This document shows positions 6,559 through 62,803 of a stretch of DNA of 64,000 nt, one piece after another (position 1 is the stretch's first letter; each line of letters starts with the position of its first letter). Both the position numbers and the translations under genes were made by a program. This stretch comes from an uncultured OM182 clade bacterium (GTDB lineage: Bacteria > Pseudomonadota > Gammaproteobacteria > Pseudomonadales > Azotimanducaceae): contig CACFLG010000005.1 in NCBI GenBank assembly GCA_902567095.1, positions 1,267 to 65,266 on the forward strand, given 5' to 3'. The notes beneath the pieces are model-generated. The model saw only the letters and a program-made list of their open reading frames with translations, was not told where the DNA came from and searched no databases.

Positions 6559-7014
6559 TCAAACCTCCTTCCTGTCTCGTCCTTTATATTTTAACGCCAA
6601 ATCGCTGAACGGCCGATAAGTATCTTCGCAGGCTGCTTCGCCCAACGCCTCCTTTGAGTCACTGCCCTCTGAGAATCTGGCCGCGTATCCAGCACATCCG
6701 CTCCTATGTTTAGGTGCCATAGGTATAGCCACAATTAGCTCATCTTCCACTATATCCTGCAGAGAAACGCACTTTCCAACTGCAACAAACGCCGCTCGGT
6801 CCTGGTCCAAATCAAATAGCTCGTTTAGCTCTTCGACAACCACAGTATTTATCTCACAGGAGATCTGTTCCGAAAATTCTCCAAGGCAAATCTGACACTC
6901 TAAGTTAACCGCTGCTGATACATTGCCGGTTATCAAAGTTCGGCATTGTTCGTCAATAGAGAAAATCAAAGAAAATTTTACCTGCCCCTCCTGCCCAAGA
7001 ACCAAAGGGCACAA
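6559..7014 (-). CDS. yceD: YceD/DUF177 protein (large-subunit rRNA accumulation protein)
   Basis: It has the CxxC...C pattern ([10 protein letters not shown]) and an acidic middle region ([12 protein letters not shown]), and lies directly upstream of rpmF. The track start is a TTG. The in-frame upstream stretch still looks YceD-like but contains no ATG/GTG/TTG, so the true start is uncertain. Confidence 0.8.
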
Positions 7015-13398: not shown

Positions 13399-13920
13399 TC
13401 AAAACTTTGAGGTTGAAATCATAGCTATTACCTCTGAAAAGTATCGGTCAGCCAAATGAACTATCTCTTGATCGCTTCGATCCTGTATGGGATGTTCAAC
13501 AAACACCTTAAAAGGATCAAAGCCAAGTGACAAGGCCTGAGCTTGGGCTGCATCTACGAATTCAGAGGAAGCTACAAAGCCTCCAGGCACGCCTCTGCTA
13601 TCTAGGTCCATAATGTCATGCAAACTGCACGACGTGCACGAACCTCAGTCTGCCAGAGCCTCAATCACCGCGTCGCAACTTGCTGCGATTTCATTCTTAA
13701 GCTCTATCGGAGCTACTCGAGTGAACGTAGGCTTAGAGAATCTCCTTACTCCAATTCCCTTCTCATGAAGCCTGTTCGCTATTCTATCTAAGAAAAAATC
13801 TCCCTTAGGTTTCGAGATATCCAAAAGCCCTACGGTCTTTTTTTGAAGATTATTCAATCGTTTTAAAGGAAGTCTTTTCGAAGATTTCTGTTCACTCGTG
13901 GGATCAAGTAGATTAGTCAT
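13399..13920 (-). CDS. UGSC-motif selenoprotein, copy 1 (in-frame UGA = Sec at 13642-13644)
   Basis: Track ORFs 13645-13920 and 13399-13623 are in the same frame (13920-13623=297). The minus-strand read across the junction is GCT CTG GCA GAC TGA GGT TCG TGC ACG, i.e. ...IEALAD-U-GSCTSC... It is a paralog of 47098-47631. selA, selB and selC are all in this window. Confidence 0.8.
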
Positions 13921-13929
13921 ATCATTCTC

Positions 13930-15345
13930 TCATGCAATTTTTCTCGTGACCGGGGCGCTTCCGACCTTGCCGCTCGCACCCCAGCCGGCAATAATGGCGG
14001 AAAACATACCTGCCTTGCCGCCCGCCCGAACGATCAGTAAACCACCGTCACGGAATTTCGGGATCTGTTTGGACTTGAATCTTAAAGGGAGACCTTCAGA
14101 TATTCCATCAGCGCCTGCAACTAATTCCTCTCCCGAGACGATCAAAAGTCCTCCCAGTCTATTTTTCAAATCAGCCTTTGTCCAACCAGCGAGGCGAAAA
14201 ACTCGCTCGTGTTCGGGCGAGACCACCAGTATAGCATCGGATGCCAATGCTAGTTTTGGGTGTCCGACTGATCTAAGCCCAGCAGCAAAAGTTCTGCTTA
14301 AAGATTCAGGATCTCGCGATTTTTGGTCTACAATTGCTTGAACTCCATCTGCGGCGAATAAAGTGACTGAGGAGCACCCTGGCGCTATCCCCCGTTCTTG
14401 CGCTAATGGTTCCCAATAGGAGCCGTCTTCGTCCTCAGCAAAACAAAAGCCAACCTTCCCCGGCGTACCGAAAGCTGAACGATCGACCTCTTGGGGCTTG
14501 CCGCCTCCTACATTTCGAATAACTAGCTGTAAAGCTCGTCCTATAGTTGAGTTAGCCCTATTGCCCTGACCTAAAACATTGCCCTGAGAATTCATGCCTA
14601 TCTCTCGAGCTATCGGCCCGTTTACTATAATCAAGGGCCCCGAGAAGTAAGTGGTGGCTAACAAACCATGCATACAAAACTCATCTTGTAACGCGGCCTC
14701 AACCGAGGCAATAACCACAGGCAAATATTGCGGGAGACACCCCGCTAAAACTGCGTTTATCGCAATTTTTTCAACCGAGCATTCAACCAGGTTTGGAGGA
14801 ATCACCCCAATAATATCTTGAGGATGGCGAGTAGTTCCTGAAAGCATTCTCAGGACTCTTTCTTTTGTAGGGGGGACAACTGGGAGCCCATCAGACCAAC
14901 CTCTAGAATAGCAAGCTTCAATTTCATCCTCATGTTCGGCGAGAGAAATGTCTCTTGATTTGATTACCTTGTCACCATACTTTGCGGCAAGCTTTTCCGG
15001 CATCCCTGGCGCCAAGGTATCTGAACCACAGCCTGGTTTATACTTGACCATCTTTTCGGGGATCTCGATTTGAAGGAACTCTGCCCATTCCTCTGAATTC
15101 CAACCCTCAATTCGATCTAATTCTTTTCCGTCTTTGCCGTAGCTTATTAACGTTGGCACTATCTCGATACTCGCTTCCCATGAACGTCGCAACCCCAAAT
15201 CTTCTCTTACCTCCAGACCTTGAGAAAAAGAAGAACCGTCCTGACAGAGAATTTCGGCGCTGTTTTTTTTTAGAAAGCTTTCAAGGATAGGCGCAACTAA
15301 CTTGCAGGTCTCACAGCCTTGTTTTAGAAAGACTACCAAGCTCAA
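13930..15345 (-). CDS. Thioredoxin-fold (CxxC) domain fused to an uncharacterised ~350-aa domain; UGSC partner protein, copy 1
   Basis: 471 aa. N-terminus VVFLKQGCETCKLVAPIL...VPTLI (CxxC plus cis-Pro motif). The remainder aligns by eye with 47624-48694 (DGLPVVPPT/DGLPVVVPT, EKIAINAVLAGC/EKIAVAAVMAGC, PLIIVNGP, RANSTIGRAL/RANASIGRAL, GGGKP/GGGRP). It starts 1 nt after the kdsB stop. Confidence 0.75.
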   Translation of the reverse strand: MSLVVFLKQGCETCKLVAPILESFLKKNSAEILCQDGSSFSQGLEVREDLGLRRSWEASIEIVPTLISYGKDGKELDRIEGWNSEEWAEFLQIEIPEKMVKYKPGCGSDTLAPGMPEKLAAKYGDKVIKSRDISLAEHEDEIEACYSRGWSDGLPVVPPTKERVLRMLSGTTRHPQDIIGVIPPNLVECSVEKIAINAVLAGCLPQYLPVVIASVEAALQDEFCMHGLLATTYFSGPLIIVNGPIAREIGMNSQGNVLGQGNRANSTIGRALQLVIRNVGGGKPQEVDRSAFGTPGKVGFCFAEDEDGSYWEPLAQERGIAPGCSSVTLFAADGVQAIVDQKSRDPESLSRTFAAGLRSVGHPKLALASDAILVVSPEHERVFRLAGWTKADLKNRLGGLLIVSGEELVAGADGISEGLPLRFKSKQIPKFRDGGLLIVRAGGKAGMFSAIIAGWGASGKVGSAPVTRKIA

Positions 15346-16101: not shown

Positions 16102-16305
16102 TTATTTCTCTATCTCCAATTTTCTTGCCAGCTCAGGAATCATGATCGGGATATCATCTTCGATGGGAAACGCCAATTTGTCGACAAAACAAATCAATTC
16201 ATGACTATCTTGTTGATAGGTTAGATTCCCTTTGCATATAGGACAAACTAATATATCTAAGAGAGTCTTTTCTAGTGCCATGTTTTTAAAACCTTCTTTA
16301 TACAA
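16102..16305 (-). CDS. ycaR: Trm112/YcaR (UPF0434) family small zinc-ribbon protein
   Basis: 67 aa with LLDILVCPICKG...L and DDIPIM motifs, between lpxK and kdsB as in E. coli. Confidence 0.85.
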   Translation of the reverse strand: MYKEGFKNMALEKTLLDILVCPICKGNLTYQQDSHELICFVDKLAFPIEDDIPIMIPELARKLEIEK

Positions 16306-19159
16306 GCATCCTGGTTACTCGATCCATTACTTCCTCTTGAACGATGGCCTCAACTTCCAAGTACCAGATTTTTTCCTTATTTATATTCAGATACTTAACC
16401 TTGACTGCGTCTTTCTCCGTTAATAATACCACTTCGTCATCAAATGAGAGGTCCGCTTCATTAAACGAGTAATGATCTGGATATTCGATTGACCGATAAT
16501 TATATCCTAGTTGATTCAAGGTCGACCAAAAACGGTTGGCGTTACCCAATGCAGCCATTGCGGTCAATTGGACCCCTTTCAAAGCGTCAACTTCTCTCTC
16601 TTCACCAGACCCGAGGTTTACAAGTCGAGTGGGCACAACATCAAGGGTAAACGGCTCTTTGTCCAGAGAAATCAATTTGCTAGAAATATTTCCATTAACC
16701 AAAACGAGGTCGATTGTTTTAATCCTTGAAATTGGTTCTCGCAACGGACCAGCGGGGAGACAAAAACCGTTTCCAAATCCCCTTTCCCCATCAACGATCA
16801 GAATTTCGAAGTCTCTGTCAAGCTTATAATGCTGCAGCCCATCGTCGCTAATTATCAAATCAACTTGGTGGTTCGCTAATAGAGTTTTGGCTGCTCGAAC
16901 TCGATCTGGATCTACAACTACGGGGACTGAAGTTCTTCGTCTTATCAAATAAGGTTCGTCTCCTGACATATAAGAACCAGTGGCATCAGACATGTCTAAC
17001 GGATAAGAATCTGCGTTACCGCCGTAACCTCTCGAGATAACTCCCGGTCGATATCCAATACTCTTCAGATGTTTTACCAGCGACACAACGAATGGTGTTT
17101 TCCCGGTTCCGCCCACTGTTAAGTTGCCAACAACAATAACTGGGACTTGAGAACTCCATTTAGAGCTTAGACGGAGGTGAAGTTTTCTCAGAAAAAAACT
17201 GGCTCGATAAAGAGCCTCCAACGGTCTAAGCAGATATAACCACCCAGCATCAGAGTACCAAGCATTGACTATTCTAGAGGTCTCGATTGGCAAATTGGGA
17301 GAATTCCAGGAAACAGTTCTGTCTCTATTGTTTTCGGGCATACGAGAAACATTTTTGCTTTTTTTAGGCGTCCAATCGTCGGCCTGATGAAGCCTCGCAT
17401 AAGCTCCGCCCGCTTCTAACAAGTCTTGATGCGTACCCTCCTCCGCTACCCTGCCCTGATCCAGAACAAAAATTCTATCCGCCATTTCGATGGTTGATAG
17501 TCTATGGGCAATAACAAATGTCGTTCTGCCTTTAACTACCGCTCCCAAAGCGGATCTTATTGATTTTTCTGACTCAGTGTCTAGAGCCGAAGTCGCCTCG
17601 TCTAATATCAAAACTGGTGCATCTTTTAAAAAAGCTCTTGCTATGGCTATCCTCTGCCTCTGGCCTCCAGAAAGCATGACCCCATTATCCCCTACGACCG
17701 TGTCGAGACCATCGGGCATCTGGACAATAAATTCCCAAGCAAATGATTTTTTTGCAGCTTCTTCGACTTGTTCGCGGGACGACTTTTTTAGAGATCCATA
17801 TCGGATATTGTTTAATATCGAATCGTTAAACAGTACAACTTGTTGACTCACGATGGAGATATGGTCTCTGAGACCAGTCAGTGCGAAATTCTGCAAAGGT
17901 TCATTATCCAATAATATCTGACCTGATGTGACCTCATAAAAGCGAGGGATCAGACTAACAAGGGTGCTCTTACCGCTACCCGATTTTCCAACTAGAGCAA
18001 CTGTTTCCCCTGGTTTCGCATAAAGGCTGATATTCTGGAGGACTCTGCTAGCTTCTTGCTGATAGCCAAAGGACACATCTTTGAACTCAATCGACCCTTC
18101 TATTTCGTCCACCATCAACTTCCCGTCATCCTGCTCAGGAGTCTCATCAAAGACATCAAAGATATCCTCTGCGGCAGCCAGTCCTCTCTGAATTTTAGCC
18201 ACCACTTCGGATAAGTTTCGAATAGGCTTCGCCAGCAATCCGCCCGTTGTTATGAAAGCTATTACGGATCCCGCTGACATGTCAGCTAAAAAAATAGGGT
18301 CCAAAACTAACCAGACCAGACCAGCTAAGGATAGAGAAACCAAAAACTGAATCACTGGTGTCGCTAATGAGGCAGTCATTACCATTTTTATGGATTGCCG
18401 TCGATTATCGCCGCTTACAGTTTCAAATCTAGCGGTTTCAAACTCTTTTCCTCCAAATGTCCTGACCTCCCTATGACCTTGAATTGCTTCAGAGGCGACG
18501 TGGGTAATACCTCCTACAGACACCTGAATTCTTTCGCTGATCCGTCTAAACCTTTTGCCGGCGTACGTCACTAACAACCCAATAAGCGGAGCAACCAAAA
18601 CAAACAAAAGCGTGAGCTTCCAGTTTAGGTAAAGCAGCAAGGCCAAATAACCCAACACGGTAAAGCCTTCTCTAAGAATTATACGAACCGCATCCGTCGC
18701 CGCGTCAGTCACTTGGGAAACGTGATAGGTGACTTTAGATACTAGATGGCCCATTGCGTGCTTGTCATAGAAACTGCTTGGCAAGCTAAGAAGCCTTCCG
18801 AACAATTCACACCTCAGATTGTGCACCAGATTGTTTGCAACGAGCGCAATAAAATAGTTTCCAGAGAAGCTGCCCACTCCACGCAGGATAGCTATTAGGA
18901 TTATCCCCAAAGGGATAAGCACCCTATCAAGCTGATCTGCCGGGCCAAATATTTTTTCAAAGTAGACCTTAGCGCCGCTTCCAAATTCGGGCGTATTTTC
19001 CCCTAACGAGTCGACAATAAAGGCAATCAATTGAACAAAGCCAACGTTCGCCAGGGAGTAGAGTAGAAAACCAATCATGCTTAGCAAAAATGCGCCCCAA
19101 TAGGGAATGACATAAGCAAGCAAACGACTATAAATCCCCAAGTCTGAGCTCATATTCAT
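16298..19159 (-). CDS. Fusion protein: lipid A export ABC transporter MsbA (N-terminal ~590 aa) plus tetraacyldisaccharide 4'-kinase LpxK (C-terminal ~330 aa)
   Basis: A single 953-aa ORF. The ABC half has six TM segments, Walker A GKSGSGKST, signature LSGGQRQR and Walker B LILDEATSALD. After a ~40-aa linker the LpxK P-loop VIVVGNLTVGGTGKTP and ISRGYGG follow. Confidence 0.9.
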   Translation of the reverse strand: MNMSSDLGIYSRLLAYVIPYWGAFLLSMIGFLLYSLANVGFVQLIAFIVDSLGENTPEFGSGAKVYFEKIFGPADQLDRVLIPLGIILIAILRGVGSFSGNYFIALVANNLVHNLRCELFGRLLSLPSSFYDKHAMGHLVSKVTYHVSQVTDAATDAVRIILREGFTVLGYLALLLYLNWKLTLLFVLVAPLIGLLVTYAGKRFRRISERIQVSVGGITHVASEAIQGHREVRTFGGKEFETARFETVSGDNRRQSIKMVMTASLATPVIQFLVSLSLAGLVWLVLDPIFLADMSAGSVIAFITTGGLLAKPIRNLSEVVAKIQRGLAAAEDIFDVFDETPEQDDGKLMVDEIEGSIEFKDVSFGYQQEASRVLQNISLYAKPGETVALVGKSGSGKSTLVSLIPRFYEVTSGQILLDNEPLQNFALTGLRDHISIVSQQVVLFNDSILNNIRYGSLKKSSREQVEEAAKKSFAWEFIVQMPDGLDTVVGDNGVMLSGGQRQRIAIARAFLKDAPVLILDEATSALDTESEKSIRSALGAVVKGRTTFVIAHRLSTIEMADRIFVLDQGRVAEEGTHQDLLEAGGAYARLHQADDWTPKKSKNVSRMPENNRDRTVSWNSPNLPIETSRIVNAWYSDAGWLYLLRPLEALYRASFFLRKLHLRLSSKWSSQVPVIVVGNLTVGGTGKTPFVVSLVKHLKSIGYRPGVISRGYGGNADSYPLDMSDATGSYMSGDEPYLIRRRTSVPVVVDPDRVRAAKTLLANHQVDLIISDDGLQHYKLDRDFEILIVDGERGFGNGFCLPAGPLREPISRIKTIDLVLVNGNISSKLISLDKEPFTLDVVPTRLVNLGSGEEREVDALKGVQLTAMAALGNANRFWSTLNQLGYNYRSIEYPDHYSFNEADLSFDDEVVLLTEKDAVKVKYLNINKEKIWYLEVEAIVQEEVMDRVTRMLV

Positions 19160-37140: not shown

Positions 37141-39014
37141 TCATTGCCACCGCGGGACATGTAGACCATGGAAAAACCTCTCTCGTTAAATCTATAACGG
37201 GCGTGGACACCGATCGGCTGGCTGAGGAGAAAAAAAGGGGGCTCACAATTGAATTAGGGTTTGCTTACACGAAGTCAGACAGCGGCGAATCGATCGGATT
37301 TGTTGATGTCCCTGGACACTCACGATTTATCGGCAACATGTTATCCGGGGTTTCGACTATAGACGCTACTATCCTTGTAATCGCCTGCGATGACGGCGTC
37401 ATGCCTCAAACGCTCGAACACCTTCAAATCTTAGAGCTCTTAGGTATCGAAAATGGCTTTATTGTCCTAACAAAAATTGATCGGTGCGAGGTAACACAGA
37501 TAGAGACAAGACAAAACGAGATAAGAAGAGAGTTAGCCAAGTCATTCCTTAAAGGTTGCCCAATAGTCCCAGTATCCTCAGTAACGGGTACTGGCATCGA
37601 GAAAGTAAAAGAAACAATTGAAGAGCTAGCCAAAAAAAAACAAAAAACAACAAAGCAAGGATTATTTAGGCTTTCAGTTGACAGGAGATTCGTGCTTCAA
37701 GGCACAGGTTTGGTAGCAACTGGAACTGTTGCTGACGGAGAGGTCTGCGAAGGAGACGAGATATGGCTAATGCCCTCAAAGATAAAACTAAAAGCAAGGT
37801 CTTTAAGAGTAAATTCTGATAAAAAAAACTTGGCTCGATTAGGAGACCGATGCGCTATCAATCTTACCGGCGAAAACATCAAACTCACTGATGTTAAAAG
37901 AGGGAACTGGCTTACAAAAAATCCGGGAGACGCAACAAAAAAGGTAGTGGTTAGACTAAAACTCCTCAGACCATCCCAAGGTAAGTTGAAAAACTTCTCG
38001 CAAGTTCATTTTCATGCGGGCGCCAATCATGCTCAGGGGAGAATGGTTTTCCATGATCTAGAAGACTACTCGGACGGCGAAACAAGTGTTGCAACAATTT
38101 TATTGTCTGAAGAAATAAATCTTTGCTACGGCGATTATTTTGTAATTCGAGACCAGTCAGCATCTTTAACGCTCGGCGGCGGCAGGATCTTGAACCCATG
38201 CCCACCGGGGAACAAAAAAAAAGAATCAGCGGAAAGAGAAACTCTAAATCTGTTCAAGTTCAAGGATATCGAGAGCGACATCCTAACCTACATTCAAGGT
38301 TTACGAGCCAGCGTACCTATCAAAAAGCTGGTTGCTGTGTTTAACGTATCCGAAAAAAATTTATTTCATCTCGTCGAGAATAATAATTTAACCACTATTA
38401 AGCAGAGTGAAGTAATTAGCGGACCAAACCTTCAGGATTTAGAACAACGAATAGAGGCATTCATTCGGGGGTGGCAACAAAAAAAATCTGGCGAGAGAGG
38501 CGTTCCCGAGTCGTCCATAGAGACTGGTGTCGAAGATCATTCCTTGGACTCAATCTCACATGCTATCGAGTCACTCATTTATAAAAAAAGGATCGCAAGA
38601 CATGGAAATGTGATCTCTTTATGCGGCTACCGCGTTCAACTTGATCAGGAAGGGAAAAGCCTTTGGGAAAAGCTATCACCTATCCTCAAAGAAACTTGGA
38701 GAAAGCCGCCTGTCATGCATGATCTAGCTAAAGAGTTACGGCTAGAACCTAAAAAGCTCGAGCAGGCCCTGGTTCCACTAATCAAAGCAGGACTTATTTT
38801 GCGACCGATTAAGAACCGTTATTTTCTGCCGGAAGCCTTAGATGACCTAAAGGGTGACATTTTCAAGGCTGCAGACAGTGATAATCAGATTTCGGTTAAA
38901 AGCTATCGAGACATAACCGGGATAGGCAGAAATCTTTCGATAGAGATTCTCGAGTATTTTGACAGACAAGGGGTCACCAGGAGACTGGGAGACAAAAGAC
39001 AAATCATAGAGTAA
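37137..39014 (+). CDS. selB: selenocysteine-specific translation elongation factor
   Basis: 625 aa with GTPase motifs AGHVDHGKTS, DVPGH and TKID, plus a long winged-helix C-terminal extension. It has an ATGA overlap with selA. Confidence 0.93.
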   Translation: MIIATAGHVDHGKTSLVKSITGVDTDRLAEEKKRGLTIELGFAYTKSDSGESIGFVDVPGHSRFIGNMLSGVSTIDATILVIACDDGVMPQTLEHLQILELLGIENGFIVLTKIDRCEVTQIETRQNEIRRELAKSFLKGCPIVPVSSVTGTGIEKVKETIEELAKKKQKTTKQGLFRLSVDRRFVLQGTGLVATGTVADGEVCEGDEIWLMPSKIKLKARSLRVNSDKKNLARLGDRCAINLTGENIKLTDVKRGNWLTKNPGDATKKVVVRLKLLRPSQGKLKNFSQVHFHAGANHAQGRMVFHDLEDYSDGETSVATILLSEEINLCYGDYFVIRDQSASLTLGGGRILNPCPPGNKKKESAERETLNLFKFKDIESDILTYIQGLRASVPIKKLVAVFNVSEKNLFHLVENNNLTTIKQSEVISGPNLQDLEQRIEAFIRGWQQKKSGERGVPESSIETGVEDHSLDSISHAIESLIYKKRIARHGNVISLCGYRVQLDQEGKSLWEKLSPILKETWRKPPVMHDLAKELRLEPKKLEQALVPLIKAGLILRPIKNRYFLPEALDDLKGDIFKAADSDNQISVKSYRDITGIGRNLSIEILEYFDRQGVTRRLGDKRQIIE

Positions 39015-39037
39015 CTGTTGGGCATCAAGGGTAAAAA

Positions 39038-39565
39038 ATGAAAAAAATCCTGAAAAACATAGTTTTATTTATTTCATCTTCTCTTTTTTCTAGTGCGGGA
39101 GCCACTCAAGTATTAGTCGGCCAAACCATTCCCGACTTCGAGATGATAGGTACAGACGGCGCCCCTTATTCCAAAGATACATTAGAGGGAAATTATTTCG
39201 TGATAGCTTTTTTTCCCAAAGCTTTTACCGGCGGCTGAACCATGCAGTGCAAATCGCTGCGTGACAGTGATTCTGTGATCAGGAATTTCGAATTGAAATA
39301 TTTTATGGCTAGCAGCGCAGACAGTGTGGAGACCCTAAGCAGATTCAAAAAGGAAAACGAGGCCTCGTTCACTATGCTATCAGACAAAAACGGATTTGCA
39401 GCGAAGGCTCTTGGCGCATACAACCCGATCGGGTTCGCAAAGAGGTGGACTATATACGTAGACGATAATGGGAAAATTTTAAAGGTGGATAAAAGCGTCA
39501 ATGTAAGGACCGCAGGACAAGATTTAGCTGAAAACTTATCGAAGTTGGGATTCCCTAAGCGCTAG
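39038..39565 (+). CDS. Signal-peptide-bearing Bcp/PrxQ-type peroxiredoxin with selenocysteine at the peroxidatic position (UGA at 39236-39238)
   Basis: Track ORFs 39038-39238 and 39242-39565 share one frame. The junction reads FFPKAFTGG-U-TMQCKSLRD, against E. coli Bcp FYPKAMTPGCTVQACGLRD. The N-terminus MKKILKNIVLFISSSLFSSAGA looks like a signal peptide. The gene lies 24 nt downstream of selB. Confidence 0.85.
39241..39263 (+). promoter_or_regulatory. Candidate SECIS hairpin of the Sec-peroxiredoxin mRNA
   Basis: A hand-folded 9-bp stem, CAUGCAGUG (39241-39249) paired with CGCUGCGUG (39255-39263), includes two G:U pairs and has loop CAAAU. It starts 3 nt after the UGA. Confidence 0.4.
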
Positions 39566-39571
39566 AAAATT

Positions 39572-40537
39572 TTAGTGCGATCTGCTAGCGATCAATCTCG
39601 CGAGATTTTCTAGATTGGTCGTGTCTCCCTCAATCTTTTGCAGGCAACCTAATGAGAGTTCAAGCTCATATTCAAGCCTACGCTCGGCCTCTTCCTCGCC
39701 TAAGATGCTTACAAAGGTGCTCCTGTTATTCTTCTTGTCAGACCCGGCTGGCTTACCCATAATTTCAGGCTTGCCCTGCACATCAAGGAGATCATCCCTA
39801 ATTTGAAAACAAAGCCCAAGATGATCGGCAAAGAGATGCAGTTCTGGGAAACTCTCACCTGGTCTTAATGCAGTAACCAGTTCCACGCTTGCCGAAAATA
39901 ACGCGCCAGTTTTTTTTCGGTGCATCAACTCCAGCTCTTTCAGTGACAACAGGCTCTCTGAAGACTCAATATCTAATAATTGCCCATAAATCATTCCTTC
40001 GGCTCCGCCAGCTTTCGCAAGAATTTTTGTCCAATCGGGTATGGCTAAATCTGTCGCCCCATCGGCCAGGACTTCAAAAGAATAGGTTAGCAAAGCGTCG
40101 CCCGTCAGCACCGCGGTAGCTTCTCCAAACTCCTTATGGACTGCAGGCTTCCCTCTTCGAAAATCATCATCGTCCATAGAGGGCAAGTCATCGTGAACGA
40201 GCGAATATGAATGCATCATCTCAATGGCGGCTGAAACAGGGTCCACCTGAGACGCTTCAACACCCAAAGCCTCTGAGGTGGCATAGATAATAAGCGGGCG
40301 TATTCTTTTCCCTCCTGCAAAAAGCGCATGCCTTAGCGCCTTCTCTAAAATAACTGAGGGACAGTGAGCTTCGATGAAACGATCCAAGAGCTCATTTACT
40401 CTTATTTTTTTCTTTTCACGCCACCGCTCGAATTCTAAAGCACTGTCTTTTTCCATCTTTGCTCTTATCCTTATGGGAGTGGCGCGGCTTAGTAAAGTTA
40501 CTCTTGAATATAGTGTATCCTTCGAACACTCAACCAT
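39572..40537 (-). CDS. ispA: (2E,6E)-farnesyl diphosphate synthase
   Basis: First Asp-rich motif LVHDDLPSMDDDDFRRGKP and second Asp-rich motif FQIRDDLLD. The real start is probably the ATG at 40456 (MEKDSALEF...). Confidence 0.9.
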   Translation of the reverse strand: MVECSKDTLYSRVTLLSRATPIRIRAKMEKDSALEFERWREKKKIRVNELLDRFIEAHCPSVILEKALRHALFAGGKRIRPLIIYATSEALGVEASQVDPVSAAIEMMHSYSLVHDDLPSMDDDDFRRGKPAVHKEFGEATAVLTGDALLTYSFEVLADGATDLAIPDWTKILAKAGGAEGMIYGQLLDIESSESLLSLKELELMHRKKTGALFSASVELVTALRPGESFPELHLFADHLGLCFQIRDDLLDVQGKPEIMGKPAGSDKKNNRSTFVSILGEEEAERRLEYELELSLGCLQKIEGDTTNLENLARLIASRSH

Positions 40538-40558: not shown

Positions 40559-41524
40559 ATGAAAAAAGCTCCAATCAAAATCAGTGCAGCGGCTAATGTA
40601 GCGCTAATCAAATATTGGGGAAAAACAGACCTAGAAAAAAATATCCCATCCGCACCCTCGTTATCAGTTGGAATAGAAGATCTTCGCACCGATACCATAA
40701 TCTCTGAGTCAAGGGAAGATAAGGACACATTGATTGGGAAGTTCAAAAAATCTGACGAACAGCGGATACTAAATTATGTTTTCATGGCAAAAAAATTACT
40801 GGGTGTTTCCGGTGGATTAGAAATAGAAACAGAAAACAACTTTCCAGCCTCAAGCGGCCTAGCTTCCAGTGCTTCAGGTTTCGCAGCCATTGCATTAGGG
40901 ATAGACAAGTTTTATGGCCTTGATATGCCCAGAGAAGATATTTCTAGGCTTGCTCGGCTTGGCTCAGGATCCGCAGCGAGGTCTATCTATGGCGGTTTTG
41001 TGCAAATGGATACCGGCCCCGACCCGTTCGCTAAACCTCTGATCGTCGAAGATCCATGGCCATTAGACATTCTCGTGCTTGTGACCGAAGAACAGCCGAA
41101 AAAGATGAGCTCTACAGATTCAATGAACCTGACCAAAGACACTTCGCCCTTTTACTCGGCCTGGCTAGATACACAAGAAGCCGATTTTCTAAAAGCAAAA
41201 GATGCCATCGAAGAAAAAGACTTTTGGAAGCTCGCTCAAATCAGCGAGCATAATTGTCTTAAAATGCACTCAACAATAATGACATCGAAGCCACCTCACG
41301 TTTATTGGAACCCCACAACAGTAGAAATTCTCCATCAAGTCCAGAAGATCCAAAAAAAAGGTTTGCGCGTTTTTTTTACGATCGATGCTGGCCCGCAAGT
41401 GAAATTAATCTGTGATCCTTCTGACACCCAAAGAGTTCTCGAACAATTCGAATCAACGTCGGGTATTTCTAGAAGGATCGTTACGAAGGTGGGGGGAGAA
41501 CCCCAAATTGAGCAGCTCGCATGA
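40559..41524 (+). CDS. mvaD: diphosphomevalonate decarboxylase
   Basis: 321 aa with AAANVALIKYWGKTD, a GHMP motif SSGLASSASGFAA and GSGSAARS. Confidence 0.9.
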   Translation: MKKAPIKISAAANVALIKYWGKTDLEKNIPSAPSLSVGIEDLRTDTIISESREDKDTLIGKFKKSDEQRILNYVFMAKKLLGVSGGLEIETENNFPASSGLASSASGFAAIALGIDKFYGLDMPREDISRLARLGSGSAARSIYGGFVQMDTGPDPFAKPLIVEDPWPLDILVLVTEEQPKKMSSTDSMNLTKDTSPFYSAWLDTQEADFLKAKDAIEEKDFWKLAQISEHNCLKMHSTIMTSKPPHVYWNPTTVEILHQVQKIQKKGLRVFFTIDAGPQVKLICDPSDTQRVLEQFESTSGISRRIVTKVGGEPQIEQLA

Positions 41525-42438
41525 GAGCGTCCGCTCCGGGCAAGCTCTTTATTTTCGGGGAGTACACGGTACTGGAAGGCGGCACAGCTCTAATTTATCC
41601 TGCACCCTTAGAAGCAAAAACCGAATCAGTGGCCTCTGAAGAGTCGATAGTGGTAACCCATTCTGAGCAAAAGGTTACCTTAAATCTCTCGGAGGCTCTG
41701 AAGCAACTTCCATTGGTATCTGCTATTGCTGAATTGGTCGGAGTAAATTGCTTTAAAAACAAGATGACTATTTTAGACACGAGACCATTCTTTAGAGGTA
41801 AACAAAAGCTGGGTTTAGGGTCGTCATCTGCTCTGACCGTCTCTACAATTAAATGCCTCCGTCCAGAGCTTAGTATGAAAGATACGATAGAGCTTGGGAC
41901 CCGATGCCACAATCTCTTTCAGGGAAAAAAAGGCAGCGGTGGCGATGTTGCGCTGGCTGCGCATGGGCAGCCTATCTTGTTTAATCAAGATAGAGGCCCC
42001 AGACCGGTCGATCGGCTTCAAGGCTTGCACGTATTAGCTATATGGACAGGAAAGTCAGCTTCGACCTCGAACTTCCTGGTCAAGCTGGAACAATGGAAAA
42101 CCAAAAGTCGTGCAAGGTTTTATTCAAAAATGGAGGAGCTAGCTAAAATTTCACTGTCGTGCACGCATAATGTCGAAGAACAAAACATATCAAATCTTAT
42201 CGAAAATATTATAAAATTCGATGCGGCGTTGGAGATCTTTTCAAAGACTTCCCAGCTTAACTTCTATAGTGATAACCATTTAAGAATGAAAACCGAAAGC
42301 AAAAAAGCGGGCTTAGCTTACAAGCCCTCGGGCGCGGGCGGCGGTGACTTTGGAATCTCCTTTAGTGATGACGCCCAGCGGATAAAAGAATTTAGCGAGC
42401 GCTTAAGCTCCCTTAACATCGTCAACTTTATCCTTTAA
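41521..42438 (+). CDS. phosphomevalonate kinase (GHMP family)
   Basis: 305 aa with ASAPGKLFIFGEYTVLEGG, LGLGSSSALTV and KPSGAGGGDFG, located between the decarboxylase and the HMGR/MVK fusion. Confidence 0.75.
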   Translation: MRASAPGKLFIFGEYTVLEGGTALIYPAPLEAKTESVASEESIVVTHSEQKVTLNLSEALKQLPLVSAIAELVGVNCFKNKMTILDTRPFFRGKQKLGLGSSSALTVSTIKCLRPELSMKDTIELGTRCHNLFQGKKGSGGDVALAAHGQPILFNQDRGPRPVDRLQGLHVLAIWTGKSASTSNFLVKLEQWKTKSRARFYSKMEELAKISLSCTHNVEEQNISNLIENIIKFDAALEIFSKTSQLNFYSDNHLRMKTESKKAGLAYKPSGAGGGDFGISFSDDAQRIKEFSERLSSLNIVNFIL

Positions 42439-42450
42439 AAAAGAGAAAAT

Positions 42451-44694
42451 GTGCCGAGGAAGATAATGGGAAAAGGACAGATTCCGGGTTTTTATAAGCT
42501 ATCTATCCTCGAGAGGCTAAAGAAGCTTAAAGATTTCGGGAAAATTTCAGAGGACGATTTTAAGGCCCTTCTTGAAGACAGACACCTGCTGTCCACCCAG
42601 CGCGCAGACAAGATGATAGAGAATGTAATCGGTGTCATGGGCTTACCATTGGGTCTTGGACTGAATTTCCTAGTGAATGACAAGGACTACATGGTACCCC
42701 TAGTTGTAGAAGAGCCCTCCATTGTGGCGGGTTTGAGCTCTGCGGCGAAGGTTTTCAAAGGGTCCGGGGGTGCAGAATCTTTTCTTGAAGAGTCTTTGTT
42801 AATCGGCCAGGTGCAGATCGTGTCTCCAAAAAATAGCGAAGACGCAAAAACCGCAATTTTGTTTAATAAATCCTCCCTTTTAGAAAAGGCCAATGAAGCC
42901 CACCCGAGAATGGCAGAGCGGGGTGGAGGGGCGAAAGACATTGAAGTAAGAGTTTTTGAGCCAACGGAAGATCAGCCGGCCATGGTGATCCTGCATCTTC
43001 TAGTCGACACCTGCGACGCGATGGGAGCTAATGTTGTGAACACCATGTGTGAAAGCCTCGCGCATGATTTGGAAGCCTTGACCGAGGGAAGAGTTTTCCT
43101 GCGTATACTTAGCAACCTCGCAGATAGATCTATCGTCAAAACGAAAGTAGAGATAGATACGAACGAATTAAAAGGAAAAGGTTTTAGGGGTGACGAGGTA
43201 AGGGATGGAGTGATTCTTGCCTCTCAGCTCGCAGAGATAGATCCTTATCGCGCCGCAACCCACAACAAGGGAATCATGAATGGCATTGATCCGCTCGCCA
43301 TCGCTACCGGAAATGACTGGCGGGCGATTGAAGCCTCAGCTCACGCATTTGCAGCAAAAACAGGTCGCTACAAATCCCTTTCGAAGTGGCAAGCTACCAG
43401 CTCGGGAAAACTGCAGGGCACTTTAGAAATACCCTTAAAGGTGGGCACGAAAGGCGGCTCGTTAGGAGCAAATGAGACGATTCAAATTAGCCAAAAACTC
43501 TTAGGGATCACAAATGCAAAAGAGCTAGCTGAATTGATGGGCGCGGTGGGGCTCGCGCAAAACTTCGCTGCACTTAGAGCCCTAGCGACCGAAGGAATTC
43601 AGAAAGGGCACATGTCTCTCCACTCTCGTAGCGTGGCACTGACCGCGGGCACACCGCCGAAACACTTCGATGAAGTAGTGAGAAAACTCAAGGAATCGGA
43701 CGAGATTACCGTCACCAAAGCCAAAAAAATTCTTGAAGACCTCTCTTCAAAAACGAACAAGACCGTAGCGAAGAAAAATGAACACGCCACGATTGCAACT
43801 GCAAATGGAAAAGTGATTTTGCTTGGAGAACATGCCGTTGTATACGGTAAACCCGCCGTGGCGGTTCCAATCAAAGACGCTGTTATAACTGAGATAAGCG
43901 ACTCGGATGGCAGGAATGAGCTTGAGGTTCCTGCCTGGGATCTTGATGGACGGTTAAAACAATCTAACAATGAATGGTGGAAGTCCCTACAAGATGTTTT
44001 CGAGACACTCGGGGTATCCAACAAAAAATTTAATCTTCGGGTAAAGCCCAACATTCCGGCTGCAGTGGGTTTAGGGGGATCTGCTGCTATCGCGGTTTCG
44101 ATTATAAGGTGTGTCTCAAAACACTTTAAATTGGATCTTACGGATCCAGAGATCAACGATCTTGCTTTTGTGTGTGAGACCGCTGCGCACGGGACAGCCT
44201 CAGGCATCGACAATACTATTGCGACCTTTGGCGAGCCCCTGGTTTACCAGCGAGAGCCCTCTATGAAAATAGAAACTCTTAAGTTCGACAAACCCGTCAG
44301 CCTCGTCATAGGCATATCAAATACTCCTTCTTTAACAGCAGAGATGGTAGCGGGCGTAAGGGCTAGATGGAAAGAGAACACGGAATTATACGAAGCCCTT
44401 TTCGAAAACTTCGAAAAAGTTGCTAGGTCGGGAATCTCTGCTATCCGGAGCGGGGACTACCAAACATTGGGAGAGATGATGAACATCAATCAAGGTCTTT
44501 TGTCAGCTATTCAAGTGTCCTCTCCTGAGTTAGACCGAATGATAGAGATAGCAAGAAGCCAGGGCGCGATTGGCGCTAAAGTTACTGGCGCAGGGGGCGG
44601 CGGTTCAATGGTCGCCTTATGCGAAGAAAAAACTGAGCCCGTCGCGTCAGCACTTTCTAACAAAGGGTTCAAGGTCCTTCAGGTCAAACTGTGA
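42451..44694 (+). CDS. Fusion protein: class II HMG-CoA reductase (N-terminal ~430 aa) plus mevalonate kinase (C-terminal ~300 aa)
   Basis: HMGR part: EEPSIVAGLS, DAMGANVVNTMCE, ATHNKGIMNGIDPLAIATGNDWRA, GTKGG and ALATEGIQKGHMSLH. MVK part: GKVILLGEHAVVYGKPA, PAAVGLGGSAAIAVS (GHMP motif 2) and KVTGAGGGGSMVAL. It is a single 747-aa ORF; an alternative ATG lies at 42466. Confidence 0.9.
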   Translation: MPRKIMGKGQIPGFYKLSILERLKKLKDFGKISEDDFKALLEDRHLLSTQRADKMIENVIGVMGLPLGLGLNFLVNDKDYMVPLVVEEPSIVAGLSSAAKVFKGSGGAESFLEESLLIGQVQIVSPKNSEDAKTAILFNKSSLLEKANEAHPRMAERGGGAKDIEVRVFEPTEDQPAMVILHLLVDTCDAMGANVVNTMCESLAHDLEALTEGRVFLRILSNLADRSIVKTKVEIDTNELKGKGFRGDEVRDGVILASQLAEIDPYRAATHNKGIMNGIDPLAIATGNDWRAIEASAHAFAAKTGRYKSLSKWQATSSGKLQGTLEIPLKVGTKGGSLGANETIQISQKLLGITNAKELAELMGAVGLAQNFAALRALATEGIQKGHMSLHSRSVALTAGTPPKHFDEVVRKLKESDEITVTKAKKILEDLSSKTNKTVAKKNEHATIATANGKVILLGEHAVVYGKPAVAVPIKDAVITEISDSDGRNELEVPAWDLDGRLKQSNNEWWKSLQDVFETLGVSNKKFNLRVKPNIPAAVGLGGSAAIAVSIIRCVSKHFKLDLTDPEINDLAFVCETAAHGTASGIDNTIATFGEPLVYQREPSMKIETLKFDKPVSLVIGISNTPSLTAEMVAGVRARWKENTELYEALFENFEKVARSGISAIRSGDYQTLGEMMNINQGLLSAIQVSSPELDRMIEIARSQGAIGAKVTGAGGGGSMVALCEEKTEPVASALSNKGFKVLQVKL

Positions 44695-45260
44695 AAAACG
44701 ACCAAACCGTCTCATCGCCTACTGAGAAATTGATCCTTGTCGACAAAAGCGATAGAAAGATTGGGCAGATAACCAAGCAGGACGCCCACCAAGGGAAAGG
44801 CCGTTTGCACAGAGCATTCTCAATATTTCTGTTTAATGATCAAAAACAACTTTTATTACAAAAGAGAAGCTTAAAGAAACCGTTGTGGCCGGGATTCTGG
44901 GCTAATTCCTGCTGCAGCCATCCACGGGTGGGTGAGGAATTAGAGGAAGCCGTGCATCGCAGGCTGGAACAAGAACTCAATGTTTCCACGTTGGTTCATT
45001 ACTTGTATAAATTTGAGTACAAAGCTTCGTTCAAGGACGTTGGCACGGAGCACGAACTATGTTCAGTTTGGCTTGGCCACGTCCGAGAGGAAGACATAGA
45101 ATTTAACCGAGAAGAGATATCTGAAATCAAATATGTCCCGATTGAAAATATGGAAAAAGAACTTGCTCGTAATAGCGATATCTGCACGCCTTGGCTTAAG
45201 CTGGAATGGAAAACAATTCAATCTGAGCACCTGGAAAGAGTTCTAAGCATAATAGCTTAA
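44691..45260 (+). CDS. idi: isopentenyl-diphosphate delta-isomerase, type 1 (Nudix)
   Basis: 189 aa with HRAFSIFLFN, LLLQKRS..K..WPG.W.NSCCSHP and ELC motifs. Confidence 0.9.
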   Translation: MKNDQTVSSPTEKLILVDKSDRKIGQITKQDAHQGKGRLHRAFSIFLFNDQKQLLLQKRSLKKPLWPGFWANSCCSHPRVGEELEEAVHRRLEQELNVSTLVHYLYKFEYKASFKDVGTEHELCSVWLGHVREEDIEFNREEISEIKYVPIENMEKELARNSDICTPWLKLEWKTIQSEHLERVLSIIA

Positions 45261-47097: not shown

Positions 47098-47631
47098 ATG
47101 TTCGAATACGTGAACCCTGAAGGGCAATCTTCCATAGAGAATACGCCCTACCGACTTTCAGCATCGATTAAAGGTGCTAACGCAATAAAAATTGGATTCC
47201 TCGCAAACGGCTTTCCCGACTCAGAAAATTTCCTCGCATTGTTAGCAGATGAATTATCAGAGCTTGAGCCGGGTATAGAAAAAGAATTTTACAATAAAGG
47301 GAACGCCTCGATCGCGGCGAGTCCCGAGCTCTTATCAAGCATCACGTCCGATTGTCAGGCGGTAGTAGCGGCCTACGGGCACTGAGGATCTTGTACCACC
47401 GGCACCGTGCGTGACGGAATCAACATCGCAAAGCTCAACATACCCGCTGTAGCCCTGGTGACGGAAGAGTTCTGGCCGCAAGGGGATTTTGTCTCGGTCT
47501 CTTTGGGGATGCCAGAGATTCCAAGGGTAAAGCTACCACACCCCGTCGCGGGATCTGGAACGGAAAACATGAGAATGATTGCAAAATCTGTAGCAACCCA
47601 AGTGATCGCCTCGCTAGACACTAATGCGTGA
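47098..47631 (+). CDS. UGSC-motif selenoprotein, copy 2 (in-frame UGA = Sec at 47383-47385)
   Basis: Track ORFs 47098-47385 and 47407-47631 share one frame. The read-through is GCC TAC GGG CAC TGA GGA TCT TGT ACC, i.e. ...VAAYGH-U-GSCTTG... A GGAGG SD sequence precedes the ATG. It is a paralog of 13399-13920. Confidence 0.8.
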
Positions 47632-48694
47632 TCTCTTAACCGCAAAATCAGAAGAAGACGCGCTAGAAGATCTCCACAGGAAAGGCTTAACCGACGGATT
47701 GCCGGTGGTTGTGCCAACTCCAAGCAGAGTAGACAGAATGGCGCTTGCGTCTGGCAATGACCCAGACATGGTCATCGGGGCCATGGGTCCAGGGAATGGC
47801 GTAGCAACGATCGAAAAAATAGCCGTCGCCGCAGTAATGGCGGGCTGCGTTCCGGATCACATGCCCGTCGTTTTGGCTGCGGTCAAGGCAGTGATCAACC
47901 CGGTATTTGATTTGACTGAGATGCAAGCCACCACACACTGCACCGCGCCTCTCATTATTGTGAATGGGCCCGCGAGGTTCTCCTGCGGACCAATCTCGTC
48001 AGGCTACGGAGCCCTGGGCCCGGGCCATAGAGCAAACGCCAGCATTGGCAGAGCGCTTAGGCTTGCCATGATCAATATTGGAGGGGGGCGACCCGGAAGC
48101 TCTGACATGGCGTTGCTTGGGCACCCAGGCAAGTTCACATACTGCCTAGCCGAAAACGAAGAAGAAAGTCCATTTGAACCCTTGCACACCTCTTTTGGAT
48201 TTGAAAGGGATGAAAGCATTGTTACGGTGATGGGGGGCGAGGCGCCCCACTCCGTGCTTTTCGGTGCGGACGGTGATGACCCCAAGAGCTACAAGGGCTT
48301 GCTAGATATTCTCGCAATCGGTCTGACTAACCCTGCGACGAACAACGCAATACTTACCGGCGGGTCTGCGCTGATTATTCTTAATCCGGAGCATGCAGCG
48401 GTGCTCGCCGACGCCGGTCTTAACCGGACAACAATCAGCGAAGAGTTGCACACAAGGTGCCTCCATACGGAGAAGGATATCAAGCGACTTGTCCCCGCAT
48501 TTTCGAGCAATAGAGAGGGAAACCGAAACGCCTTTACGGGTCCAGAGCAGATTTTAATTATGATGGCGGGCGGCTCAGGGCTTTATTCGATGGCGATCCC
48601 CACATGGAGCGCAGGGGCCCACAAAAACTCACCATCCTGTGAGAAGATAGAAACAGATTTTTTCTGTGAGATTCCGGACAAGAAGATTGACTAA
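47624..48694 (+). CDS. Uncharacterised ~350-aa domain protein; UGSC partner protein, copy 2 (no Trx domain)
   Basis: 356 aa. It overlaps the UGSC gene by 8 nt. It shares DGLPVVVPT, EKIAVAAVMAGC, PLIIVNGP, RANASIGRAL and GGGRP blocks with residues ~150-471 of 13930-15345. Confidence 0.75.
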   Translation: MRDLLTAKSEEDALEDLHRKGLTDGLPVVVPTPSRVDRMALASGNDPDMVIGAMGPGNGVATIEKIAVAAVMAGCVPDHMPVVLAAVKAVINPVFDLTEMQATTHCTAPLIIVNGPARFSCGPISSGYGALGPGHRANASIGRALRLAMINIGGGRPGSSDMALLGHPGKFTYCLAENEEESPFEPLHTSFGFERDESIVTVMGGEAPHSVLFGADGDDPKSYKGLLDILAIGLTNPATNNAILTGGSALIILNPEHAAVLADAGLNRTTISEELHTRCLHTEKDIKRLVPAFSSNREGNRNAFTGPEQILIMMAGGSGLYSMAIPTWSAGAHKNSPSCEKIETDFFCEIPDKKID

Positions 48695-48708
48695 CACGAG
48701 AGACTGAG

Positions 48709-49485
48709 ATGACCGACTTCCCTACGCCCTACGTATCTAACGATTTAAAAGACAAAGTGGCTTTGGTCACAGGCACCACCTCGGGCCTGGGCCGGCGCTT
48801 CGCGCTGGTGCTTGCCGCCTGCGGCGCAAAGGTCGCCCTGACCGGTCGACGAGCAGAAAGGTTAGATGAATTAGCCAAAGAAATTAGGGAATCAGGCGGG
48901 ACATGTCACCCAATCCCTTTCGACATCACGGATGAAAAACAAATACCCGAGGTTGTCGACAAAGCTCAGAAAGAGTTAGGGCTGGTGGATATCCTCGTAA
49001 ATAACGCAGGGATACCTGATGCCCAAAGAGCGCACAAGATGAGCAATGAATTTACTGACCTGGTATTTGGGACGAACCTTATCGGTCCCTGGAAGCTCTC
49101 TTGCGAGGTCGCGAGGAGACTAATCGAAGCAAAAAAACCTGGGCGCATGGTGAATATTTCGTCAGTGGGCGCGTTTAGGTACGACGGAAACGGGGCCGCA
49201 CTCTACTCGGTAACCAAATCCGCTTTAATTCGAATGACTGAGTGCCTCGCGGTCGAGTGGGCAAGATTTAACATCAACGTTAACGCGATCGCGCCAGGCG
49301 CTTTTTCCTCTGAGATGATGGACGGTATGCTGGAGCGGATGGGCGACTTCTCGTCGGCGTTCCCACGCGGTCGCATCGGAGATCCAGCGCAGATGGACTC
49401 TTCCCTGCTCTACTTCGTCTCCCCCGCGTCAGAGTTTGTGACCGGGACCTACGTGAAGATAGACGATGGACAGGGGGCACGTTAA
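48709..49485 (+). CDS. SDR-family oxidoreductase
   Basis: 258 aa with TGTTSGLG, NNAG and YSVTKSA motifs, immediately downstream of UGSC partner copy 2. Confidence 0.85.
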   Translation: MTDFPTPYVSNDLKDKVALVTGTTSGLGRRFALVLAACGAKVALTGRRAERLDELAKEIRESGGTCHPIPFDITDEKQIPEVVDKAQKELGLVDILVNNAGIPDAQRAHKMSNEFTDLVFGTNLIGPWKLSCEVARRLIEAKKPGRMVNISSVGAFRYDGNGAALYSVTKSALIRMTECLAVEWARFNINVNAIAPGAFSSEMMDGMLERMGDFSSAFPRGRIGDPAQMDSSLLYFVSPASEFVTGTYVKIDDGQGAR

Positions 49486-62621: not shown

Positions 62622-62709
62622 ACTCTCCGCCTAGCGTCAGGTATCGAGTTTGCCTCAAATGAGGAAGATACGAAAGACGATCACCAAAACACCTGCTATC
62701 ATCGATCAC

Positions 62710-62803
62710 GGAAGAGCAATGCACCCGGTGGTGCGCGCGGCCTTCAAAGCCGTTGAGCTGCTGATAAAGTGGCTGGAGGGTTCGACTCCTTCCTCTTCCG
62801 CCA
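62710..62803 (+). tRNA. selC: tRNA-Sec (anticodon UCA)
   Basis: Hand fold: acceptor GGAAGAG/CTCTTCC with a G discriminator and encoded CCA. The 6-bp D-stem TGCACC/GGTGCG has the 4-nt loop CGGT, which is a tRNA-Sec hallmark. Anticodon stem GCGGC/GCCGT carries loop CTTCAAA. A long variable arm has the 6-bp stem AGCTGC/GTGGCT. The T-arm is GAGGG-TTCGACT-CCTTC. The 5' and 3' ends resemble E. coli selC (GGAAGA...TTCGACTCC...TCTTCCGCCA). Confidence 0.85.

Follow-up and report, generated by a model that had tools for sequence, protein, structure and literature searches.

We analyzed a stretch of 64,000 nucleotides (nt; referred to here as the window) from contig CACFLG010000005.1 of an uncultured OM182 clade gammaproteobacterium, which carries two copies of a gene pair encoding a selenoprotein of the UGSC family and a larger partner protein of an unnamed family. 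Genes for these two proteins almost always lie side by side or are fused across bacteria and archaea, and the two therefore probably constitute one thioredoxin (Trx)-linked selenium enzyme. The explanation that we favor, and consider fairly probable, is that UGSC and its partner are two subunits of a single selenocysteine (Sec)-dependent, Trx-recycled reductase, which is often made as one fused chain. As part of the same explanation, it seems reasonably likely that the window encodes two diverged paralogous enzymes of this type.

Two UGSC/partner pairs in the window

The six genes of the two loci, including a short-chain dehydrogenase/reductase (SDR) gene beside each pair, are as follows.

47098 to 47631, plus strand: UGSC selenoprotein copy 2 (UGSC2), 177 amino acids (aa); Sec TGA codon at 47383-47385; motif GH-U-GSCT
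47624 to 48694, plus strand: partner copy 2 (partner 2), open reading frame (ORF) of 356 aa; unnamed family
48709 to 49485, plus strand: SDR oxidoreductase beside copy 2 (SDR2); Pfam adh_short, E 4e-50; co-directional, 14 nt downstream of partner 2
12609 to 13379, plus strand: SDR oxidoreductase beside copy 1 (SDR1); 3-ketoacyl-reductase/HSD-like subfamily; convergent with UGSC1
13399 to 13920, minus strand: UGSC selenoprotein copy 1 (UGSC1), 173 aa; Sec TGA codon at 13647-13645; motif D-U-GSCTSC, that is, UxxCxxC
13930 to 15345, minus strand: partner copy 1 (partner 1), 471 aa; predicted Trx-like N-terminal domain plus partner core

A preliminary description of the window, made from the sequence, had reported these three genes as a set that occurs twice. 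The ORF listing bears out its coordinates for all six genes, and the UGSC/partner pair is indeed present in two copies; what did not hold up is the SDR as the shared third gene (see below). The two UGSC proteins align as paralogs (26% identity, E 2e-16), both reading U-GSCT, as do the two partners (35% identity over ~350 aa, E 4e-55), in both of which the conserved blocks quoted in that description are present. The genes of each pair are as closely spaced as had been reported, with a gap of 9 nt in copy 1 and an overlap of 8 nt in copy 2. Partner 1 consists of a predicted Trx-like domain with a CETC motif (approximately residues 1 to 95), a conserved PGCGS linker and the partner core (approximately residues 131 to 471).

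Both UGSC proteins match the Pfam family PF24696 (UGSC) over profile positions 2 to 170 of 172, with E values of 4e-38 for copy 2 and 7e-37 for copy 1. Against NCBIfam NF041046, copy 1 scores 136.7 bits, above the curated cut-off of 125, and copy 2 scores 92.8 bits (E 2e-26), below it.

UGSC and its partner are linked across bacteria and archaea

We scanned one genome per GTDB species with a partner profile, kept the best 80 loci for neighborhood counts and detected UGSC genes in them with hidden Markov models built from the window proteins. These loci span Gamma-, Beta- and Alphaproteobacteria, Acidimicrobiia, Dehalococcoidia, Rokubacteria/Methylomirabilota, Binatia, Myxococcota and one haloarchaeon. 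A UGSC gene was present in 71 of the 80 loci, and 77 of the 80 UGSC matches lay directly beside the partner on the same strand, with UGSC upstream in 54 of these pairs and the partner upstream in 23. Sec forms greatly outnumbered Cys forms (72 versus 3).

The reverse test started from 120 metagenome contigs picked solely by a DNA pattern for the UGSC Sec motif (SW-S-x-HD subfamily), with adjacency defined as lying within 400 nt. Among 126 UGSC matches, 85 had an adjacent partner, 35 were cut off by the end of the contig and 6 had none; that is, 85 of the 91 assessable UGSC genes adjoin a partner. Three of the six exceptions have a same-strand partner 450 to 570 nt away, and one has an adjacent partner on the opposite strand. 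Taken together, the counts in the two directions (77/80 and 85/91) imply that the linkage is close to obligate both ways, and with the fusions described next they bear out the earlier claim that UGSC and a ~350-aa partner are tightly coupled. The association extends to Cys-type UGSC homologs, for which the preliminary description had raised the question of whether they keep the same partner: they do so in Sphingomonas, Natrialba, Halalkalicoccus, Natrinema, Roseovarius and Variovorax.

Fusions were counted in the 150 best cluster representatives of the partner profile search. UGSC and the partner are fused in 39 of these, in both domain orders, and five contain tandem double partners. Many of the UGSC-partner fusion records end exactly at the Sec codon and are therefore Sec-containing fusions that gene finders have miscalled. 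One further database protein (P0396, 489 aa) joins an ornithine cyclodeaminase/mu-crystallin domain (PF02423) to UGSC; it could be an uncommon fusion or have arisen through faulty assembly.

Two or three UGSC-partner pairs stand in tandem in L041 (a Chloroflexi metagenome-assembled genome, 3284-8681), which carries up to three, and in L038, L039, L044, L054, L061 and L078. This arrangement suggests expansion into paralogs of differing specificity.

Across the 80 neighborhoods, no recurrent third gene family was operonic in more than 6 loci. The genes found within 4 kb of the pair include those for CoA-transferases (12 loci), LLM oxidoreductases (7), TctC-type binding proteins (7) and acyl-CoA dehydrogenases (6). 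In plasmid sequences from cultured strains, the partner carries the annotation "hypothetical protein" and stands beside a "UGSC family (seleno)protein," and on haloarchaeal plasmids, Cys forms lie amid CoA-transferase, TRAP-transporter, amidohydrolase and aldehyde-dehydrogenase genes. In Paracoccus ferrooxidans, the 1.46-Mb replicon pFER4 (locus L206, 4381-10933) carries a Sec-type pair 3.3 kb from selB, with transglutaminase, cysteine desulfurase, TusA and DsrE genes 0.4 to 3.8 kb upstream of the pair, a context that may connect the pair with carriage of the Sec machinery or with the trafficking of sulfur.

Decoding of the UGSC TGA codons

Both UGSC frames cross one in-frame TGA codon, at the positions listed above, that is followed by GSCT. 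Sec insertion sequence (SECIS)-like structures lie close behind both codons, and the window also encodes a tRNA-Sec.

47399 to 47417, plus strand: SECIS-like hairpin of copy 2, CCGGCAC-CGUGC-GUGACGG; loop ~20 nt after the UGA
13605 to 13644, minus strand: SECIS-like stem-loop of copy 1, immediately following the UGA; apical loop GUU
62709 to 62802, plus strand: tRNA-Sec (anticodon TCA); Rfam RF01852, 65.6 bits; also ARAGORN

RNA folding gives -20.5 kcal/mol (z -2.0) for the copy 1 stem-loop. The copy 2 hairpin is energetically weak on its own and is also kept in the orthologous loci L004 to L024. A hairpin with a GU-containing loop occurs ~20 nt past the TGA, at the same distance, in ~70 homologous loci, and its stem shows compensatory changes between loci (GUGCA/UGCAC versus GUGGA/UCCAC). 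Because the position of the hairpin is kept and its stem changes are compensatory, we conclude that the UGSC TGA codons are Sec codons.

The tRNA-Sec supplies a decoding component needed by both UGSC genes. None of selA, selB and selD was seen in the window, nor are any of them among the scanned ORFs that flank the tRNA-Sec, whose products are a luciferase-like monooxygenase, an M50B-like peptidase and FtsK.

The window contains a third selenoprotein gene, unannotated, in the ORF-free gap at 39014-39572. This gene (39038-39565, plus strand) encodes a Sec-containing peroxiredoxin/BCP-like protein with a signal peptide; its TGA codon lies at 39236-39238, and the motif FFPKAFTGG-U-TMQC places Sec at the peroxidatic position.

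UGSC is predicted to have a flavodoxin-like fold

We obtained an AlphaFold2 (AF2) model of a natural Cys-type UGSC-partner fusion (47 fusion homologs), with a pLDDT of 84 and a pTM of 0.84. The UGSC domain of this model adopts a five-stranded flavodoxin-like fold, with the C/U-G-S-C motif at the N terminus of the helix that follows strand 3, and Foldseek matches it to lumazine synthase and flavodoxins with a probability of ~1 and target-normalized template modeling (TM) scores of 0.5 to 0.6. The fold predicted for UGSC is thus flavodoxin-like and not Trx-like. The passages on UGSC in PMC2398784, and in the reviews PMC9312934 and PMC13188914, describe it as a selenoprotein whose function is unknown and presume a Trx-like fold, a presumption of PMC2398784 that is not borne out by the model. 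The conserved residues of UGSC are the Sec position, G97, the Cys at position +3 (C99), D106, F125 and an HP motif.

The partner family is large and unnamed

No Pfam or NCBIfam model matched the partner (for Pfam, even at E≤10), and sequence searches of the PDB returned nothing except matches to the Trx-like N-terminal domain of the copy 1 type. Word-indexed homolog searches with the two partners nevertheless gave at least 7,857 significant matches, among 8,000 scored candidates, and at least 8,000, respectively, and an exhaustive profile search placed the family at 6,648 clusters at 50% identity. Nearly all homologs are unnamed or called "hypothetical," as are all of the best 120 listed in the partner 2 search; orthologs of partner 1 are named "thioredoxin family protein" by the source databases. 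The preliminary description had proposed that its account would fall if the partner were a well-characterized enzyme with no linkage to UGSC genes; what we found is a family with no model and with widespread linkage to UGSC.

Among 596 distinct partner sequences, the conserved residues include E177 (100%), R143 (99.8%), C75 (97%), C174 (96%) and K170 (93%), and the DGLP loop, T104, N138 and G142-R143 are all conserved in at least 98%. A fairly confident AF2 model of partner 2 (pLDDT 76, pTM 0.82) shows two alpha/beta domains, and a Foldseek search of the PDB with this model gave no significant fold match. The top match, to class I (Fe-S) fumarate hydratase, was rejected (E 2e-3, TM 0.24, root mean square deviation 17 Å), and comparison of the two profiles with hhalign gave a probability of just 1.3%. 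A class I fumarate hydratase gene lies directly 3' of the partner gene, in the place held by the SDR in this window, in the gammaproteobacterial relatives L010 to L012, and ~1.9 kb downstream of it in L005; because of the hhalign result, we regard this adjacency as plain synteny. PurM/HypE-like Foldseek matches (E 0.5 to 1.6, TM ~0.1) were judged to be noise.

The pair is associated with the thioredoxin system

Apart from UGSC and second partner domains, the identifiable N-terminal extensions on the partner are all disulfide-reductase modules, namely, Trx-like domains, AhpC/TSA-Redoxin domains and the catalytic chain of ferredoxin-thioredoxin reductase (FTR). In partner 1, the extension carries its CETC motif at residues 12 to 15 and matches TIGR01068 (E 0.0018) and PF00085 (E 0.089), and a profile of 58 family members of both partner types, including partner 1, matches PDB thioredoxins (E 2e-4). 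All of these matches lie below the curated cut-offs, and they are mutually consistent.

The thioredoxin reductase gene, trxB, is co-directional in the operon with Cys-type pairs on two plasmids. Roseovarius sp. THAF8 has these genes arranged as LysR, partner, UGSC, trxB, and Variovorax sp. SRS16 has them as trxB, TctC, SDR, partner, UGSC. The suggestion that UGSC belongs to a thiol or selenol redox system is therefore upheld by the UxxC motif at a helix N terminus, the fusions to Trx, AhpC and the beta chain of FTR, and the presence of trxB in some operons.

The SDR is not a core member

The proposal that the SDR is the third member of a conserved module did not survive the neighborhood counts. 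A same-strand SDR gene adjoins the pair in 5 of the 80 GTDB loci, and an SDR gene lies within 4 kb in 18, against the ~22 to 38% predicted by a background density of one SDR gene per 21 to 39 kb (window plus loci). On the metagenome contigs, 9 of the 126 UGSC matches have an SDR gene within 2.5 kb. Since these counts are at background level, the unit is the pair and not the trio; outside close relatives, the UGSC/partner adjacency is conserved and that of the SDR is not.

SDR1 and SDR2 share just 30% identity and fall into separate SDR subfamilies. SDR1 is on the strand opposite to UGSC1 and, because the two genes are convergent, it is not in the UGSC1 transcript. The surroundings of copy 1 form a housekeeping block (exbBD, msbA/lpxK, trm112, kdsB, partner, UGSC, SDR, murB and rne), and the order kdsB-partner-UGSC-(SDR)-murB is retained in relatives at 64 to 66% identity. 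The synteny of SDR1 is housekeeping synteny and shows no functional link. SDR genes flank both copies in relatives at 64 to 73% identity, and the adjacency of SDR2 is held in the close relatives L001 to L004; SDR2 is probably a lineage-specific neighbor and not a core member.

A proposed enzyme and its alternatives

In the enzyme that we favor, UGSC would be a small flavodoxin-like alpha/beta protein that presents Sec-x-x-Cys at the N terminus of the helix after strand 3, and the two-domain partner would provide the substrate site, built around Cys75, Cys174, Glu177, Arg143, Asn138, Thr104 and the DGLP loop. The selenol would attack the substrate held by the partner, the adjacent Cys would resolve the adduct to give a selenenyl-sulfide, and a Trx-type module, fused in copy 1 and supplied elsewhere by free Trx/TrxB, would re-reduce it. 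This scheme builds on the pairing and the fusions found here, on the fold class predicted for UGSC, on the conserved residues and on the link to the Trx system; the direction of electron flow, the role of Sec as the nucleophile and its contact with the partner cysteines are what we infer. As for the class of substrate, the surrounding genes hint loosely at small organic acids or at acyl-CoA metabolism, and the multiple paralogous pairs and catabolic neighbors suggest diversification of the family across small organic substrates.

A narrower version of this explanation draws on the Stickland reductases. Proteins in the Global Ocean Sampling (GOS) data set classed as "proline reductase/GrdB"-like match PF07355 (GRDB) and share with UGSC the layout around Sec, namely, a hydrophobic strand, x-x-U-x-x-C, a helix and a G-(I/V)-(P/S)-T-V strand, together with a further P-x-x-(L/F)…(H/F)-P-x-G segment. 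Alignment of the UGSC and GrdB/PrdB-like profiles with hhalign covered ~72 columns and placed Sec on Sec, with a P value of 2e-4 (probability 45%), or 6e-5 (probability 65%) with the -M first setting. The corresponding P values for controls were 0.36 for the reversed alignment, 0.022 for the best of 30 column shuffles and 0.17 to 0.4 for unrelated families. PF07355 itself matched neither UGSC protein, even at E≤10. We regard distant homology of UGSC to GrdB/PrdB as a good lead from profile comparison, not as proof.

Several observations weigh against the reductase that we favor, or limit how far it applies. Many Cys-type fusions keep the first Cys and lose the Cys at position +3 (consensus CGTSTS), and a few fusions have lost both UGSC redox residues yet keep the partner cysteines, so that in some lineages the partner may be active without a selenol/thiol center. 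In the partner itself, C174 is replaced by Val in some members, and ~10% of partner genes lack a UGSC gene beside them. We rejected trxB as a general neighbor, since it lies near the pair in only 2 of the 80 GTDB loci, on the opposite strand there. The similarity to GrdB/PrdB, finally, is modest (probability 45 to 65%) and was tested only after the likeness of the motifs had been spotted by eye.

If the lead to GrdB/PrdB is followed, the pair would be an analog of the Stickland-type "protein B," with UGSC as a trimmed GrdB/PrdB homolog and the partner in the role of GrdE/PrdA. The partner would then bind and activate an amino acid- or betaine-like substrate, perhaps via a carbonyl formed by self-cleavage at a conserved Cys, and Sec would reductively cleave a C-N (or C-S/C-O) bond. 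The register of the profile alignment, in which the G-x-P-T-V strand and the P-x-x-P/FPxG segment coincide as well as Sec, fits such a relationship, as does the UxxCxxC motif of copy 1. The grd and prd operons likewise show a two-subunit or fused arrangement, a high Sec:Cys ratio and association with Trx/TrxB. The partner, however, matches neither GrdE/PrdA nor any Pfam model and has no fold match in the PDB, and GrdA, GrdC/D and PrdC-F genes are not recurrent in the 80 neighborhoods. Moreover, most hosts are haloarchaea or heterotrophs that live aerobically, and there is no sign of proprotein cleavage. On balance, we consider this identity doubtful, with perhaps one chance in a few of being right. 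We are slightly more open to the broader, still tentative idea of a new, widespread class of selenoenzyme, distantly derived from the Stickland selenoprotein B, with a catalytic subunit of new fold and a Sec-dependent reductive cleavage of a bond in a small metabolite; under this equally tentative reading, the class would act in aerobic bacteria of the sea and of soil and, in a Cys form, in haloarchaea.

Two further explanations depart from a two-subunit reductase. The pair might be a device for redox sensing, for sulfur, selenium or metal trafficking or for maturation, in which Cys and Sec bind a ligand or a cluster. The conserved Cys pair and Sec/Cys could indeed serve as ligands for a metal or a persulfide; the Paracoccus copy has DsrE, TusA and cysteine desulfurase genes nearby; the C terminus of one partner gives a weak NifU-like match (E 0.0085, below the cut-off); and the best, though insignificant, Foldseek matches of the partner are to Fe-S fumarate hydratases. 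Yet the profile comparison with that enzyme was negative, no recurrent neighbor suggests which pathway or protein would be the client, the Glu, Arg, Asn and Thr residues that are invariant resemble a catalytic or substrate-binding site, and several paralogous pairs per genome, as in the triple tandem of L041, better fit an enzyme family diversified by substrate; we think such a device improbable. Finally, the SDR could be a dedicated component of a three-gene module that supplies NAD(P)H-derived electrons or makes the substrate, in keeping with its presence beside both copies in the window and in relatives, and with operonic SDR genes in L004, L050, L064, L065 and Variovorax. The neighborhood statistics given above (5/80, 18/80 and 9/126), on which we rejected it as a third component, the different subfamilies of SDR1 and SDR2, the convergent position of SDR1 in the kdsB/murB block and the lack of any fusion of UGSC or the partner to an SDR among the 150 representatives make such a module very unlikely.

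Other features of the window

Near copy 1, ORF 16298-19159 (minus strand) encodes a protein of 953 aa in which an MsbA-type ABC exporter is fused to the tetraacyldisaccharide kinase LpxK; this fusion is conserved in the relatives L084 and L085. Upstream of copy 2 lies a mevalonate-pathway cluster (40559-45260, plus strand), here in a gammaproteobacterium. Within it, 42451-44694 encodes a 747-aa HMG-CoA reductase with a fused GHMP-kinase domain, followed by an ORF (44691-45260) whose counterpart in L001 is a NUDIX protein. That relative, a member of the Pseudomonadales, has the same HMG-CoA reductase/GHMP-kinase fusion and the same gene order upstream of its UGSC pair.

Earlier work on UGSC and significance

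In the GOS selenoproteome, UGSC was among the top five selenoprotein families, with 255 Sec versus 21 Cys sequences (PMC2398784), in agreement with the preliminary description, which had named it as an abundant ocean-metagenome selenoprotein family. Its statement that neither a function nor a partner had been defined stands for the function, since a 2026 review still lists UGSC without one. It does not quite stand for the partner: the GOS study (Zhang & Gladyshev 2008, PMC2398784, Fig. S1A) reports a UGSC/"Unknown_1" fusion in which Unknown_1 is a conserved domain that also occurs free in some aquatic organisms. From that account, Unknown_1 is very probably the UGSC partner. The pairing is thus only partly new, having been foreshadowed in 2008 and never developed; the sections of PMC2398784 that deal with UGSC contain no functional model and do not mention the fusions to Trx, AhpC and FTR, how broad the partner family is or that the adjacency is nearly universal. 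In NCBI records, the fused proteins bear the name "UGSC family (seleno)protein."

Recognizing UGSC as one half of a conserved, often fused unit turns an orphan motif into a defined, testable enzyme candidate. The other half, a family of over 6,600 clusters (50% identity) that lacks both a solved fold and a model in Pfam or NCBIfam, represents a large gap in the protein family databases. Culturable hosts exist for both forms, namely, Paracoccus for the Sec form and Roseovarius, Variovorax and haloarchaea for the Cys forms. If the reading as a new selenoenzyme class is true, it would give a function to one of the ocean's most abundant orphan selenoprotein families.

Comparison with known systems

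GrdB and PrdB resemble UGSC in having U-x-x-C after a hydrophobic strand and before the helix and the G-(I/V)-P/S-T-V strand, in working with a larger second subunit, in their link to the Trx system and in the rarity with which Sec is replaced by Cys. They differ in that UGSC, at only ~175 aa, has no counterpart of the N-terminal two-thirds of GrdB/PrdB, in that its partner is unrelated in sequence to GrdE/PrdA, with no GrdA or GrdC/D alongside, and in that its hosts are largely aerobes and haloarchaea instead of fermenting anaerobes. The Trx-recycled reductases, such as MsrA/B-Trx fusions, peroxiredoxins and ArsC, likewise combine Sec or Cys with a resolving Cys and have natural fusions to Trx-fold domains that regenerate the active site. 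Each of these enzymes is one catalytic domain with a known fold, whereas UGSC and its partner carry the redox center and the presumed substrate site on two proteins with other folds. Both UGSC proteins of the window are members of the PF24696/NF041046 family, which they match in length and in having the U-G-S-C and HP motifs, and their marine gammaproteobacterial source fits the known abundance of this family in ocean metagenomes.

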